The notes under the pieces are model-generated. The model was not told where the DNA came from, made no database searches, and saw only the letters and a program-made list of their open reading frames with translations. Source: Acidobacteriota bacterium (GTDB lineage: Bacteria; Acidobacteriota; UBA6911). From it: DNA of 64,000 nt. Location of the stretch: the NCBI GenBank assembly GCA_963664705.1, contig OY761556.1, forward strand, positions 3,008,001 through 3,072,000. Reading direction: 5' to 3'. This document shows positions 4,824-40,283 of the stretch, one piece after another. The position numbers were made by a program, and so were the translations under genes. Position 1 is the first letter of the stretch. Every line of letters begins with the position of its first letter.

Positions 4824-7205
4824 ATGGCGGACTTAGCAGGAACCAACGGAACCAGAAAAGAATTCAAGGTGGTCGGAAAACCGAATCTCCCGGGCGTGTT
4901 GTCCTGGTCACAGGCAACCGGCGTCGCAAAATACGGCATCGATGTAGTCGTGGCCAACATGCTGCACGCCAAATTCCTCCGCAGCCCCTATGCAAACGCT
5001 CGCATCAAGAGCATGGACACGACGAAAGCCAAGGCCATTCCCGGCGTTGTCGACATCGTCACCTGGGAAGATGCGGATCTCAAGCACCTGTCCAGCGGTG
5101 GAGACGGCGGCTTCATGATGGGCCCGACGCAGGCGTTTCTGGATAACCAGGCCGATCAGGAAGGAGCGGAAGTGGGCGCCATCGTCGTCGCCGAAAGCGA
5201 AGACCTTTGCGAAGAGGCGCTGCGGGCTCTCGTCGTGGAATGGGAGGAATTGCCATTTGTCGTTGACCTGCGAAAAGGACGTGCTTCCGATGCGCCGGTC
5301 ATCAGGCCATCCTCCCCGGCAGGAAAAGCCGGCTCCGGCGGCGGCTTCGGAATGGGAGGAGGCAACAATCCCCCCAAAAAGGGCAATGTGAGCTATTCCA
5401 ACACCAACGACGGGGATATCGAAAAAGGGTTCAAGGAAGCGGATCACATCATCGAATATGACATGAATACCTCCGCTTTTTCCGGGCATATCCCCAATCC
5501 GTTGGGTACGGTCGCCTGGTGGTTTGACGACCCCCTGCGCGGTGAGGGAAAGAATCTGCAAATCGAAGGCGTTCCCTGGGGACACGACCAGGTTTCCAGC
5601 ATGAACCGTGTAGCTCCGGACAAGGTCTTCCAGAATTGCATGTTCGTAGGCGGGCGGTACTGTGACTGGGGCATCCGTAAATCCCAACAGGTCACGCCTA
5701 TGCTGGCCAAAAGAACCGGAAGACCGGTGCGATGCGTCAACCGGCGCACGGACATGTATGATTTTAACCTGTGCCAGCGCTATGTGCATATGAAGGTCGG
5801 ATTCAAAAGCAACGGTCTGATTACGGCTATCGATGACTTTTCCATTGCGGATGGCGGAATCCGGGGCAGTTCCATTTTCGGCAACACGATGGACCAGACC
5901 TACGGGCCCTATTTCACCACCCGCTGCCTGAACATCAAGCAGAGCATGGAGGTTGTCGACAGCAATACCGGAATGATGTATGTCAGCGGCCAGCATAACC
6001 CAATGGGCTGGGACACGCTGATGGTAGGGTTTTACCTGATTGCGGATAAGCTGGGCAAGGACCCGATAGAAATCGCAACGCTGAATCTCCATGGACCGGA
6101 ATCCCAAACCGATCCGAATCCGGTCCCCAGCTATGAGGCCTGTGTTGCATCCGTAAAAAAGATGATGAACTGGAACTGGCACAAAGCTGGCGCCAAAAAG
6201 ATGTCGGACGGCCGCATGCACGGGGCAAGCTTCCGGTACAACCAGTGCCCTCGCCATTCAGGAGCATCGTTCAATCCGAAACTCGAGCTTCGAAACGGCA
6301 TAGTGCATCTCGCATCCAAGGGGCCCATCATCGGCCACTATGGATTGGAAGCCAATGCGATGACGGCGGCGGAAGAACTTGGACTCGAATACAAGGACAT
6401 CCGCATTGATCTGGATCACCACGAGATTTACCGGCCGTTTGGCGGCGGTAGTGACGGATCCACCGCTTCTTCATGGGCTGTGAAGGAATGCGCGAATAAG
6501 CTCAGAAAGCTGATTCTGGAAACGGCAATCGAGGAGGCAAACACGCCTCCCGCGACCGGTGGCATCATGATGGGGGGCCCCGCGAAACAGGCTCCAAATC
6601 CTTTCAAGGGCCTGAAGCCGGAAGACCTCGACATGCAGGGCGGCAAAGTTATTGTCAAAGCCGATCCGAGCAAGGGACTTCCCCTGGCTCAAGCCGTCCG
6701 ATCCAATCTGTTCGCGACATTTTCGGGCAGACCGCCGCTGTCCCTCTGGAACCAGCGGGGCAAGGCGCTGGACACGATGAATGCAGCCACATGCGAGGTA
6801 GCCGTAGATACGGAAACCGGAGAGGTGGAGATTCTTCGTTATGGCGTTGCCGCGGATCCCGGAAAAATCATGCGACGGACATCCCTGGAAAGCCAGATCG
6901 ACCAGGCGATGGACTTTACTACCGGATGCCAGCTTCAGGAGGAGTTTGTCTACGACCCCAAAACCGGAGTAAGACTCAGCACGAATATGTTTGAGTACAA
7001 GAAGGTCAGCATGCTCGACATGCCCCGGGTAGACCTGGAACTTCTGGAAACGCGCGTAGGCAATGCCTGCTACGGCGCCAACGGCATCAGCCACTCCCTG
7101 ACCAACACCCATCTCGTCATCATGGCAATTCACAATGCGATCGGCAAATGGGTAGAATCGCCGGCCACGCCGGAGAAAGTTCTCAAAGCTTTGGGTAAGG
7201 CCTAG
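4824..7205 (+). CDS. Xanthine dehydrogenase family molybdopterin-binding subunit, copy A
   Basis: ATGVAKY, MLHAKFLRSPYANARIKS, AAEELG, EVAVDTETGEVEIL, C-terminal PATPEKVLKALG. Start MADLAG at 4824 is shared with copy B. Confidence 0.9.
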   Translation: MADLAGTNGTRKEFKVVGKPNLPGVLSWSQATGVAKYGIDVVVANMLHAKFLRSPYANARIKSMDTTKAKAIPGVVDIVTWEDADLKHLSSGGDGGFMMGPTQAFLDNQADQEGAEVGAIVVAESEDLCEEALRALVVEWEELPFVVDLRKGRASDAPVIRPSSPAGKAGSGGGFGMGGGNNPPKKGNVSYSNTNDGDIEKGFKEADHIIEYDMNTSAFSGHIPNPLGTVAWWFDDPLRGEGKNLQIEGVPWGHDQVSSMNRVAPDKVFQNCMFVGGRYCDWGIRKSQQVTPMLAKRTGRPVRCVNRRTDMYDFNLCQRYVHMKVGFKSNGLITAIDDFSIADGGIRGSSIFGNTMDQTYGPYFTTRCLNIKQSMEVVDSNTGMMYVSGQHNPMGWDTLMVGFYLIADKLGKDPIEIATLNLHGPESQTDPNPVPSYEACVASVKKMMNWNWHKAGAKKMSDGRMHGASFRYNQCPRHSGASFNPKLELRNGIVHLASKGPIIGHYGLEANAMTAAEELGLEYKDIRIDLDHHEIYRPFGGGSDGSTASSWAVKECANKLRKLILETAIEEANTPPATGGIMMGGPAKQAPNPFKGLKPEDLDMQGGKVIVKADPSKGLPLAQAVRSNLFATFSGRPPLSLWNQRGKALDTMNAATCEVAVDTETGEVEILRYGVAADPGKIMRRTSLESQIDQAMDFTTGCQLQEEFVYDPKTGVRLSTNMFEYKKVSMLDMPRVDLELLETRVGNACYGANGISHSLTNTHLVIMAIHNAIGKWVESPATPEKVLKALGKA

Positions 7206-37873: not shown

Positions 37874-38662
37874 TCAACGGGCTGCATGTTTTGCGGAAGC
37901 GTTTCTCGAATCTGGGTGGATTTTCTCGAGGACGAACGCAAGCCGAACAGGCTTTCCCTCAAGCACCCACTGTTTCTGGACTGTAAGCACACGAAAACCT
38001 GACATACGCGCCATCAGCCGGATCTCCGCTTCTGTATAATGGCGTTCCCGCACTTGTACGAGGCGCTTTTTGTAAAGGCGTCCACTCGGGATAAACCAGA
38101 GTTGTTGGAACTCAACAATCCCGCTTTTCGGATCATAGCGATTGGAGGACTTCATGTAGTTCTTTCCAATGGTGTATAGCGTTTCCCGCTCGTGCAGCCA
38201 TCGGAACCAATGCGCGGTGCTGATGTCAAAGAGGAATAATCCGCCGGGACGCAAAATGCCGGCAACACGATGGAAAACCTCCTGCAATTCTCTCGGCGAC
38301 AGCACGTGATTGAGCGCATCAAAATGGCAGGTAGCAACATCCGCCCGCACATCGAGCCGCAATTTTCGTATATCCTGGCAGAACCAGCGTACTCGGTCAG
38401 ATTTCCTGCGGGCTTGCCGCAGCATGGCGGGAGAGGCATCGACTCCAAGGACAGACCATCCGGCTCTGCGAGTCCAGGGAATAGTAGCATTCCCGGTTCC
38501 ACACATCAGATCGACCAGCGTCCGAATTTTCAGTCTGCGTTCTGTAATGGTTTGCAGAAGCAGTTGTCTCCAATACCGATAGAATTTTTGGAGTTCGGGG
38601 TCCGCCGCCAGCTCATCATAGACCTCCGCAAGGTCTTTATACGGATCGTCCTCTGCATGCAT
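37874..38662 (-). CDS. Class I SAM-dependent methyltransferase
   Basis: Y..LA.VYD, VDLMCGTG, GVDASPAML, DALNH, LRPGGLFLFD. Confidence 0.92.
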   Translation of the reverse strand: MHAEDDPYKDLAEVYDELAADPELQKFYRYWRQLLLQTITERRLKIRTLVDLMCGTGNATIPWTRRAGWSVLGVDASPAMLRQARRKSDRVRWFCQDIRKLRLDVRADVATCHFDALNHVLSPRELQEVFHRVAGILRPGGLFLFDISTAHWFRWLHERETLYTIGKNYMKSSNRYDPKSGIVEFQQLWFIPSGRLYKKRLVQVRERHYTEAEIRLMARMSGFRVLTVQKQWVLEGKPVRLAFVLEKIHPDSRNASAKHAAR

Positions 38663-38935
38663 TTGATTGCTCCGTGAGGTTGCATCTCATGGGATTCCGC
38701 CGCACTCGAATGCTTGAAGCTGGAACGAATGGTAAACCAAAAGCAACCCATTATGGCAGGAAATATTCCGATCGGCACTATCGGCAGGATTGAGAAGGAT
38801 TGGCGCCTGGTATCTGTTGGTCGGCTTTGCCATCCTTCACGGCACGGGTGAAATCAATTTGTTCTTGCAAAATGAGAGTTGTGAGCTCAATGTATTGCGG
38901 TTTTTGATCAACAACCCCATTTATGGAGGTGTTCC

Positions 38936-39184
38936 ATGACAAAGCACATCGACTTCGACAACCTCCCCTCCTTTCGAAATCTCTAGCAAACGGAGGAAGG
39001 GGATATCCCTCCGAAACCAAAGTTCGTCGCGGCGAGAGAACTGTCCACCTCGAAAAAGAACTGCATGAAAAACTCGGTCGCAATGATCTATGCCCATGCG
39101 GATCCGGGCATCGGTTTCAAACAATGTTGTTTGCGATCGGGTCATTTCGACGGAAGCAATCGAAATCACTATTCAAGAGATTAG
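38936..39184 (+). CDS. Small SEC-C motif protein whose reading is interrupted by +1 frameshift(s); programmed recoding or pseudogene
   Basis: GGAGGT RBS before ATG 38936. KLGRNDLCPCGSGHRF is in one frame, and the completing KQCC appears only in the +1 frame after TTT-C (39115-39118). Two earlier +1 shifts (38972-38975, 39000-39003) are needed to join ATG 38936. Confidence 0.7.
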
Positions 39185-39226
39185 CGGCAAAATGCCAAGC
39201 GCCCTGATTCGTTTCGTGGATTGATA

Positions 39227-39257
39227 GGCTGCCGGTCGCTTATTGGCACCGGCAGCC
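39227..39257. terminator. Hairpin between convergent SEC-C and SDR genes
   Basis: GGCTGCCGGT...ACCGGCAGCC, 10-bp arms. Confidence 0.55.
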
Positions 39258-39295
39258 AGGACCAGAAGTATCTATAGAGTGCGGGAGACCTTAAC

Positions 39296-40054
39296 CTAAT
39301 GAAGCGAAACGCCTCCATCGTGCACGATTAACTGTCCGGTGATCATCCGGCTGTCATCGCTGGCGAGAAAAAGCGCCACTCCGACGAGATCCTCAGGATA
39401 GGCCGGCTTCTTCAGGCAGCGCACAGCCATCTGCAATTCGTCAAGAGGAGCAGGCGGGAACTTCTTATTCCGATCGAATTCATCCCCTCCCTCCGAGTGG
39501 GTGAAGCCGGGGGCGATTGCATTTACATTGATATTGTATTCGCCGAGTTCGCGGGCCATTCCGCGCGTAAAGGCCATAATGGCACCTTTGGAGGAAATGT
39601 AATGCGGCATGCCCGCGACTCCTTCGAAAATGGTTCCCGAGGAGATGTTGATGATCTTCCCACCCTTGTCTTTCATGTGGGGAAAGACTGCCTTCACGCA
39701 CTGAAAGGGGCCCAGAGTGTTGACTTCCATAACCCGCATCCATTCCTCGCGGGTTACTTCCATGAAAGGTTTTATGGTTACCAGCAATCCCGCATTGTTC
39801 ACAAGAATATCAACGGCGCCAAATCGATCCATGGCGGTCTTCACCATGGCGTCACATTGTTCCTGCTGGCTCACATCGGTTTTAATATAAAGGGCCTGGC
39901 TTCCAGCCTTCTCAATGGCGGAAACGGTATCTGTCCCATCTGCGATATCCGCGACAACGACTCTCGCCCCTTCTTTCGCAAATCCGACTGCAAATGCAGC
40001 GCCGATTCCACGGGCCGCCCCTGTTATGATCGCAACCTTATCTTTAAGTCTCAC
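39296..40054 (-). CDS. Short-chain dehydrogenase/reductase (classical, probably NAD-dependent)
   Basis: TGAARGIG, VVADI, NNAG, YISSK, VNAIAPG, GQLIVHDGG. GTG start with AAGGAG RBS. Confidence 0.95.
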   Translation of the reverse strand: MRLKDKVAIITGAARGIGAAFAVGFAKEGARVVVADIADGTDTVSAIEKAGSQALYIKTDVSQQEQCDAMVKTAMDRFGAVDILVNNAGLLVTIKPFMEVTREEWMRVMEVNTLGPFQCVKAVFPHMKDKGGKIINISSGTIFEGVAGMPHYISSKGAIMAFTRGMARELGEYNINVNAIAPGFTHSEGGDEFDRNKKFPPAPLDELQMAVRCLKKPAYPEDLVGVALFLASDDSRMITGQLIVHDGGVSLH

Positions 40055-40283
40055 CGCAGGCTCCTTTCGCAAGCACGAAAGGCTATCATACAGAATTTCT
40101 CAAATGCTCCCCAGGACTTATTCGACAGACAAATTCCGCGGCGGGCAGGAGGCAGTATTCGCCCCGGGGTGTCATGATTCCGCGATTGGTCATTGCCGCA
40201 ATTTGGCCGATAACAGCGCAGCAAACAGGAAACGGCACTCAGGACCCGTCTTCCTGCATCCGGCGCGCATGCCCACATTGCGG

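Follow-up and report, generated by a model that had tools for sequence, protein, structure and literature searches.

In the window, as we call the whole stretch of 64,000 nucleotides of DNA analysed here, a mini-gene carries the code for an 81-residue SEC-C protein that would be readable only across three frame breaks. Comparison with its relatives identifies it as a real, conserved, multi-site recoded gene, not a pseudogene. Expression by three serial +1 slips of the ribosome is highly probable, and we propose, with a probability of roughly 0.55, that the slips form a multiplicative frameshift gate sensing translational stress.

A SEC-C Mini-Gene with Three Frame Breaks

Re-reading of the sequence gave a mini-gene of 249 nt, made up of 81 codons, a stop, and three extra bases. 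Its four joined segments contain 13, 9, 38, and 21 codons and end at the stop TAG (39182 to 39184). Read without slips, the ATG at 38936 yields 16 residues and meets a stop at codon 17; the SEC-C core lies in a frame other than that of the leader, and its last two Cys lie in a third. The original prediction had placed GGAGGT at 38925 to 38930, the ATG at 38936, and slips at TTT-C (38972 to 38975), GGG-A (39000 to 39003), and TTT-C (39115 to 39118), giving 81 residues with the final Cys-Cys ligands reached only past slip 3. Every coordinate matched, all four Cys were present after slip 3, the three extra bases proved real in the DNA, and a family of slipped genes stands behind the reading. A test code that decoded TTTC as a single step joined the segments as expected at slips 1 and 3, and homologues running continuously across each junction were found. 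The features of the region, with the evidence for each, are as follows.

37874 to 38662, minus strand: divergent upstream gene, a SAM methyltransferase, not part of the system (ORF and domain search)
38925 to 38930, plus strand: initiation Shine-Dalgarno (SD) GGAGGT (sequence; 5 to 6 nt SD ahead of the leader start in 137 of 147 homologues)
38936 to 39184, plus strand: whole mini-gene, basic SEC-C protein (sequence, junctions, continuous homologues)
38936 to 38974, plus strand: segment 1, a 13-codon leader ending Ser-Phe (leader length, Ser/Cys-Phe counts)
38961 to 38974, plus strand: anti-SD-like pyrimidine tract (predicted pairing with the start SD or the slip-2 internal SD; suggestive only)
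38972 to 38975, plus strand: slip site 1, TCC-TTT-C, A-site CGA (+1 shifted in 133 scored genes)
38976 to 39002, plus strand: segment 2, +1 frame, E-x-x-S-K-R-R-K-G (pN/pS 0.30, decoded frame stop-free)
38992 to 38996, plus strand: internal SD GGAGG, 3 nt ahead of slip 2 (74 of 88 slip-2 genes, 1 of 74 in-frame genes)
39000 to 39003, plus strand: slip site 2, GGG-A, A-site ATA (GGG-N in 90 of 93 open pattern matches)
39004 to 39117, plus strand: segment 3, +2 frame, with the YPSE motif, a predicted beta-hairpin, and the first half of SEC-C (pN/pS, Pfam, model)
39076 to 39130, plus strand: SEC-C metal-binding motif CxC...CC (final Cys pair reached only past slip 3)
39115 to 39118, plus strand: slip site 3, TTT-C, A-site CAA (shifted in 124 scored genes, TTTC in 111)
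39119 to 39184, plus strand: segment 4, frame 0 again, with K-x-C-C, G-x-F-D-G, and a conserved Arg near the C-terminus (pN/pS, tails)
39296 to 40072, minus strand: convergent downstream gene, an SDR oxidoreductase, not part of the system (ORF and domain search; no cis target here)

Since its neighbours are an intact divergent methyltransferase gene and an intact convergent SDR gene, the mini-gene stands alone in the window. A sigma-70 promoter scan at the mini-gene gave no match, and an Rfam scan returned nothing over threshold (one chance match, E 2.6).

Authenticity and Distribution of the Family

The view that the breaks are no assembly error was borne out by contigs. Those from four runs of one sample, possibly the source of the assembly, carried positions 38700 to 39400 without substitution or gap. 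A contig from another study spanned 38925 to 39162 (slips 1 to 3) and differed by 21 substitutions, without gaps; a second, from a different study, spanned 38925 to 39092 (slips 1 and 2) with 15 substitutions and no gap. Being gap-free despite 15 and 21 substitutions, these contigs indicate that relatives have kept the same extra bases. A local pseudogene among continuous homologues had also been considered; most relatives were broken as well, mostly three times. Because the same frame changes recur in homologues of at least 11 phyla, they are not due to chance.

Species-representative genomes were searched with a 48-residue query, the native frame ending just ahead of slip 3. At least 310 relatives were found, and the best 80 of 310 genome loci, which we examined, account for the phyla counted above. 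The spread is patchy: clear copies occur in about 3 of 60 close relatives and in no fewer than 7 of the 400 genomes surveyed in the phylum, a minimum because just 14 candidates per genome were scored. Protein databases hold the family as fragments, with 82 of 120 matches to the window ORF continuing off-frame as R-F-Q after GSG, a count that the window-ORF query itself favours. Nine of 68 longer matches were read; all carried unrelated or off-frame extensions, and none was a real fusion. As to mobile elements, we found no phage record, two plasmid records, and one clear copy among five viral-contig matches.

Several copies among the metagenome matches are broken. Metagenome contigs bearing a tandem of two damaged slip-2-type copies account for three pairs of loci (L187/L188, L117/L118, and L185/L186), and several further slip-2-type metagenome copies adjoin integrase or transposase genes. 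The host itself has a degenerate second copy (G000:C1:6459328-6459465, minus strand, L024), in which the N-terminal part has decayed and the site-3 TTT-C is kept.

The tRNA-Phe of the host has a normal 7-nt GAA anticodon loop, the host 16S rRNA ends in CACCTCCTTT, a matching anti-SD, and the host's own prfB retains the standard shift motif. Genome-wide quadruplet reading or an odd tRNA-Phe was ruled out by this normal tRNA-Phe and by common in-frame TTT-Y, which numbers 9,671 sites (TTT-C 5,281, TTT-T 4,390) in 1,964 long intact host ORFs. Genes for tRNA-Arg(UCG) and miaB were found. Three tRNA calls in the host genome read TCA; a short tRNA-like gene of 72 nt called SeC(TCA) (G000:C1:1625651-1625722, minus strand) lies ~3 kb from rtcB (C1:1621815-1622888).

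Five Slip Positions and a Near-Constant Count of Three

Scoring of the homologues disclosed five +1 positions: S1 after the leader, S2 between G and Y, S3 between F and KxCC, S4 between F and DG, and S5 between F and R near the end. In the window gene, sites 4 and 5 are in frame within segment 4. Frames were scored in 78 genome loci (the script could not parse L100 and L101), one relative, and the window, and S2 was shifted in only four of these 80 rows. For metagenomes we used a pattern for S2 in which the position of the extra base was fixed and both the Gly wobble base and the extra base were left free. It returned 124 loci; 93 of 126 matches were open to CxC, 90 of them with GGG-N. Deduplication left 85 metagenome loci, of which 54 were scorable at all five sites, as were 70 of the 80 genome rows, while 41 rows that were damaged, incomplete, or unparsed were left out.

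Exactly three slips were needed in 102 of the 124 fully scored genes, two in 11, and four in 11, in a sample biased by its origin in the best 80 of 310 genome matches and in a metagenome set chosen for slip 2. Whether homologues keep the extra bases at the same three sites had been posed as a check; most do carry three breaks, at positions that vary among five sites. The three-slip patterns (S1 to S5) were 10101 (41 genes), 11100 (41), 11010 (9), 10011 (7), and 10110 (4); the four-slip patterns 20011 (7), 11110 (2), 11011, and 21100; and the two-slip patterns 00101 (4), 10100 (3), 11000 (2), and 01100 (2). With two or four slips in 22 of 124, a net shift of +3 was ruled out as a strict rule. 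When each site was shuffled independently, three-slip genes averaged 49, with a maximum of 67, compared to the 102 observed, a null that overstates significance because kin are not independent. Slips 2 and 5 occur together in only 1 of 58 slip-2 genes, and of the 26 genes unshifted at site 3, 24 are shifted at site 4. A weakly supported tree built from 156 columns of the decoded core requires 5, 7, 9, and 9 changes at sites 2 to 5, respectively; the trade-off between sites is not established phylogenetically, since an independent-pairs test found only one or two pairs on well-supported branches.

Reading by hand added further cases. Loci L073, L100, L101, L235, and L243 to L246 also need three slips, L073 by way of a TTT-C site after the SKRRKG motif that was seen nowhere else, and L242 needs two. 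Site 1 of six loci (L034, L067, L090, L098, L103, and L105) is a T7-C run needing +2, which could reflect two +1 slips, one -1 slip, or, in some assemblies, a homopolymer error; if it is a single -1 event, these six also need three events. Variant sites include a prfB-like CTT-TGA at site 1 of L108 and a CTT-C ahead of site 4 of L083. A cyanobacterial copy (L081:4834-4976) is continuous from site 1 to the end, and its extended, acidic leader appears to need a further TTT-TGA slip.

Signals at the Slip Sites

Four of the five sites consist of TTT and a pyrimidine, and S2 of GGG-N. Among the 133 scored genes shifted at S1, the site reads TTTC in 77, TTTT in 55, and CTTT in one, with TCC directly 5' of TTT in 71. 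S3 is shifted in 124 genes, 111 of them with TTTC. Genes in frame at a Phe site mostly have TTC there (32 of 37 at S3). Re-pairing with a synonymous codon, also part of the original prediction, was supported at all three window sites. GGG occupies the S2 position in only 6 of 74 in-frame genes, and the prfB-like GGAGG first seen 3 nt before slip 2 in the window is kept in 74 of 88 S2-shifted genes against 1 of 74 unshifted ones. This is the spacing described for SD-stimulated +1 shifts (PMC5009743, PMC12421855), and bacterial UUU_Ynn is considered prone to +1 shifts (PMC5009743).

The A-site codons are more variable. They are mainly CGA (67) and TGA (53) of 133 at S1, ATA (56) and TTA (23) of 88 at S2, CAA (110) and TAA (7) of 124 at S3, and TAG (41), CAG (12), and CCG (11) of 64 at S5. 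Of 125 cases with T as the fourth base, 122 have a stop as the following zero-frame codon. At S1, S3, and S4 the next residue leaves no alternative to this stop after TTT-T. S5 does allow others, yet all 41 genes with TTT-T there continue with AGR and so form TAG; AGR follows TTT-C in 12 of 23, the baseline being 9 of 74 in-frame genes at S5 and 67 of the 315 Arg codons that these genes contain elsewhere. What stays constant is the codon in the P site (TTT, or GGG accompanied by an SD) together with the number of slips, not the A-site codon. The idea that A-site tRNAs with modified wobble bases are sensed was not supported, as the residue that follows largely dictates the A-site codon, which also alternates with stops; since the host encodes tRNA-Arg(UCG), inosine is not necessarily required to read CGA. 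That Phe and Gly tRNAs, and sense and stop A-site codons, are interchangeable points to a general property of the ribosome.

The four core segments gave pN/pS values of 0.19 to 0.49 in stop-free decoded frames and 0.85 to 2.15, with stops, elsewhere, although anchoring the segments on protein motifs biases these values to some extent. Segment 2 scored 0.30 when decoded and 1.1 to 1.3 with stops in the other frames, segment 3 scored 0.30 and 0.19, and segment 4 scored 0.49 and 0.48 and is stop-free. Judged by this per-segment comparison, which had been suggested as a check, the core segments are under purifying selection only in the slipped frames. Conserved re-pairing sites combined with coding selection in both frames, the general mark of programmed +1 frameshifting, were thus found.

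Start Site, Leader, and RNA Folding

A strong SD with a match of 5 to 6 nt lies ahead of the leader ATG in 137 of 147 genes. An SD-less ATG at 38923 had earlier made slips 1 and 2 seem the weaker ones. It was rejected as the true start, given that any ATG open into the middle frame occurs in only 6 of 77 slip-2 genes and in none with an SD; both slips are well supported, and this ATG is incidental. An SD-less ATG just 3' of S1 in 42 of 141 slip-1 genes could allow re-initiation to bypass slip 1 in those genes, which does not apply in the window. The leader is 13 codons long in 68 of 133 genes, and Ser or Cys precedes the Phe in 118 of 133. Leaders of the 133 genes are acidic just ahead of slip 1 (D+E 23%); acidic nascent chains can destabilise ribosomes.

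The pyrimidine tract of the leader is predicted to form duplexes with the start SD and the slip-2 SD of -11.3 and -16.5 kcal/mol, compared to -8.1 and -10.9 for synonymous shuffles, and it pairs with the two SDs better than synonymous shuffles do in 65 and 64 of 69 slip-2 genes, respectively. These predicted pairings suggest that the tract could be a switch or a guard against internal initiation. Folding of the whole gene was not special (z -0.03), and with Rfam also negative, a structured RNA stimulator was rejected. An upstream motif search of 141 leaders gave no shared regulatory motif evident among the matches listed, with a sigma54-like match in six.

The Encoded Protein

Over the first half of the SEC-C motif, the product matched the Pfam family PF02810 (E 2.4e-6, 27.7 bits vs a cut-off of 20.4). 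The CxC...C[C/H] ligands are present in their GRND-C-C-GSG context, the motif being GRNDxCxCGSGxxFKxCC, and the Cys are invariant or above 90% in 120 homologues. By homology, this SEC-C knuckle would bind a metal, zinc or iron; SecA-like metal domains can bind iron (bioRxiv 10.1101/613315). The conserved parts are SKRRKG-[YF]PSE, a predicted beta-hairpin, the SEC-C knuckle, and a C-terminal Arg, which is retained in both S5-shifted and unshifted tails.

The SEC-C stretch is the only part with known relatives or a known fold. NCBIfam scores were far below all cut-offs, and of the partner domains sought (UPF0149, the YchJ middle domain, and the SecA ATPase) none was present; only the SEC-C stretch matched. 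A natural continuous homologue, P0121, has a pI of 10.7 and 19 K/R in 73 residues, and an AlphaFold model of a natural continuous homologue is of low confidence (pLDDT 60). A Foldseek search with the model returned only SEC-C peptides, at E 0.26 or worse, the VIA structure search none at Z 2, and Atlas only SEC-C clusters. A match to bS21 at E 0.26 was treated as chance.

The SecA metal-binding domain is described as binding SecB and ribosomes. Together with the basic charge and the gene context, this suggests that the product binds RNA or the ribosome and probably acts on them in trans within a tRNA-array and RNA-repair response. Trans action is likelier than a leader role because the downstream gene is randomly oriented (same strand in 33 and opposite in 44 of 77 loci). 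ArfA is a small basic rescue factor made upon failure of trans-translation, and the logic of a small basic product made under stress would recall it.

tRNA Arrays and RNA-Repair Genes

Seven of the 80 genome loci are rich in tRNA genes (4 to 24 each), and repair genes (Hen1, RtcB, RNA ligase, Thg1, RlaP, and TROVE) adjoin 11, ten of which came to light when 217 of the 683 called ORFs were run against Pfam and the eleventh through clustering. With two loci overlapping, such a context was found in 16 of 80 and was not seen in 64. Planctomycetota account for 8 of the 11 repair loci, mostly in one clade. The mini-gene heads repair clusters within ~30 to 150 nt in L034, L041, L059, L070, L079, L090, L096, and L107. 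Among 124 short metagenome loci, 20 have tRNA genes, those placed on the tree belonging to the 11010 clade, and neighbours in the metagenome 11010 clade include RtcB, RlaP, TROVE, and Macro. L235 lies in an array of 19 tRNAs and L246 in an array of 16.

On the IMG/VR contig that holds it (L235:422-7627), the L235 copy uses slips 1, 4, and 5, and its 19 tRNA genes are all for Leu, Phe, Tyr, or Ser; an ORF at 5738 to 6934 is one that, from its motifs, we take to be EF-Tu-like. The region looks like a translation-stress island. Beside the mini-gene in the tRNA-rich loci L061, L079, and L095, an unannotated family of ~240-aa genes (cluster C6) recurs.

The originally proposed link to translation status was thus supported by the neighbourhoods of the family, in 16 of 80 loci, but not by the window copy, which stands alone: neither it nor the other genes with slips 1, 2, and 3 (11100) have a tRNA or RNA-repair neighbour within short flanks. 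Of the gene classes that had been suggested as neighbours, RNA repair appeared in the family, as did tRNA arrays, and tRNA modification did not, with no miaA, miaB, tilS, or tadA among 308 neighbouring ORFs scanned. In Anabaena, ribosome-targeting antibiotics raise the expression of such tRNA arrays 100-1000-fold and also induce rtcB (PMC8421152), and derepression of that regulon through loss of its repressor raises frameshifting (PMC10272220); the main text of neither paper refers to SEC-C. Chloramphenicol and oxazolidinones cause frameshifting (PMC10959953).

Comparison with Known Frameshifts

The nearest known design is that of prfB, which shares the short leader followed by a +1 P-site slip, the internal SD 3 nt upstream (as at slip 2), and, at family site 1, TTT-TGA and CTT-TGA (PMC12421855). 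The prfB gene has one site, where here there are three in series; its UGA is required in all genomes, where here stops alternate with sense codons; its SD works with CUU, here with GGG; and its product is RF2, here a SEC-C protein. The prfB-type CTT-TGA-C is absent in the window, where the A-site codons are CGA, ATA, and CAA.

Known UUU_Ynn sites, of which E. coli argI is a further example, are single, low-level or incidental, and give an extra product, whereas here several are obligatory for the sole conserved product. Window site 1, TCC-TTT-CGA, resembles the influenza PA-X site (UCC_UUU_CGU), and UUU_Ynn sites also occur in E. coli pheL and Yersinia yopN-tyeA (PMC5009743). The use of a frameshift rate as both sensor and effector is shared with ermCL and antizyme (PMC5009743, PMC10959953). 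Those systems have a single site and a specific ligand, and ermCL acts in cis; here there are three sites, and the product apparently acts in trans. In Euplotes and in Perkinsus mitochondria, genes also contain several frame breaks, often at stops, as part of genome-wide recoding, in contrast to our host with its many in-frame TTT-Y sites. SecA tails, YecA, and YchJ share the SEC-C motif, but here it belongs to a stand-alone 80-aa protein with its own SKRRKG-[YF]PSE N-terminal part. As for tRNA L-arrays with RtcB (the Anabaena trn operon and TrcR regulon), family members lie inside or beside such arrays, and the window copy does not.

To our knowledge, known bacterial regulatory frameshifts use one site per gene. 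A search of the open literature on SEC-C, conserved or multiple frameshifts, and RNA repair gave no description of the family among the matches listed; SEC-C is likewise absent from the available parts of Antonov 2013, comprising the main text and two of three supplements. Each site resembles a known +1 signal, but in this search we found no published account of three serial slips combined with mobile sites and an SD-driven GGG.

Proposed Mechanism and Alternatives

Under the proposed gate, ribosomes would cross the three breaks one after another. At TTT-Y, the P-site tRNA-Phe would re-pair one base on, aided by better UUC pairing or a slow A-site stop, and at GGG-N the internal SD would pair with 16S rRNA as it does in prfB. 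Output would be the product of the three slip rates and is thus likely to rise steeply under translational stress. The signal would be that ribosomes in general keep frame less well or that the A site fills slowly, caused by ribosome-targeting antibiotics or cleaved tRNA or rRNA, and not the state of one tRNA modification; it is the neighbourhoods of the family that point to such general stress. A stronger form, which we regard as doubtful, is a gauge of ribosomal frame-keeping: an AND gate with an approximately cubic response, its exponent kept at three while sites move and a Phe site is swapped for an SD-driven Gly site, whose product would bind the ribosome or the RNA-repair machinery and restore fidelity, in a feedback loop serving translational accuracy as a whole as that of prfB serves RF2.

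The same triple slip might instead serve, without any sensing, to keep a small protein that is potent or toxic constantly at a very low level, which we consider unlikely. Such a throttle would explain why three slips are preferred and why the sites are tuned (TAA in only 7 of 124 at site 3, TAG chosen at site 5), and most copies do stand alone with a randomly oriented downstream gene. The strong SD kept in 137 of 147 genes speaks against it, as a weak start would throttle more cheaply, and the recurrence of copies among tRNA arrays and RNA-repair genes would be left unexplained.

Sensing of one tRNA state also seems improbable, whether of a hypomodified P-site tRNA-Phe (ms2i6A37, made by MiaA/MiaB, reporting iron or sulfur status) or of wobble-modified A-site tRNAs. 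Loss of the A37 modification raises UUU-Y slipping, Phe stands at four of five sites, and the host has miaB; the iron binding of SecA-like metal domains and the prevalence of ATA and TTA after slip 2 (56 and 23 of 88) would suit such a sensor. Nevertheless, a Gly site with an SD substitutes for a Phe site, CTT sites occur (L108 and L083), stops take the place of sense codons in the A site, the host has a gene for tRNA-Arg(UCG), and none of miaA, miaB, tilS, and tadA was among the 308 neighbouring ORFs scanned.

A cis leader, in which only fully slipped ribosomes would couple translation or transcription of a downstream repair operon and re-initiation may replace slip 1, is harder still to credit. 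The downstream gene is convergent in the window and in 44 of 77 loci, and selection at the protein level is strong, with invariant Cys and a C-terminal Arg in slipped and unslipped tails alike; these outweigh the position at the head of repair clusters in several loci and a last slip that often adds just one or two residues. Removal of the extra bases from the RNA by transcriptional slippage or editing is very improbable. Some site-1 variants are T6-T7 runs, but TTT-C and GGG-A, which make up most sites, are short for polymerase slippage, and since the signals are codon-phased (TTT vs TTC, A-site TAG, SD spacing), they are apparently read by the ribosome. Finally, although damaged copies exist, including the host paralogue and several metagenome matches, a pseudogene or assembly error has a negligible chance in view of the four identical contig sets, relatives in other studies, the same sites across phyla, and purifying selection, and for the family as a whole this reading is already refuted.

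Implications

More than 1,000 database proteins of the family are probably mis-annotated fragments with off-frame ends (the 1,389 matches may include other SEC-C proteins). The family offers natural variants by the hundred for testing how UUU-Y slips are tuned, along with a natural +1 site in which GGG is combined with an SD; its cassette of 250 nt could report sensitively on antibiotics or ribosome damage. Our findings point to an undescribed member of the tRNA-array and RNA-repair stress response. A chromosomal gene with three serial slips, whose number is kept while their positions move, would be a new route to a steep switch built from translation errors.
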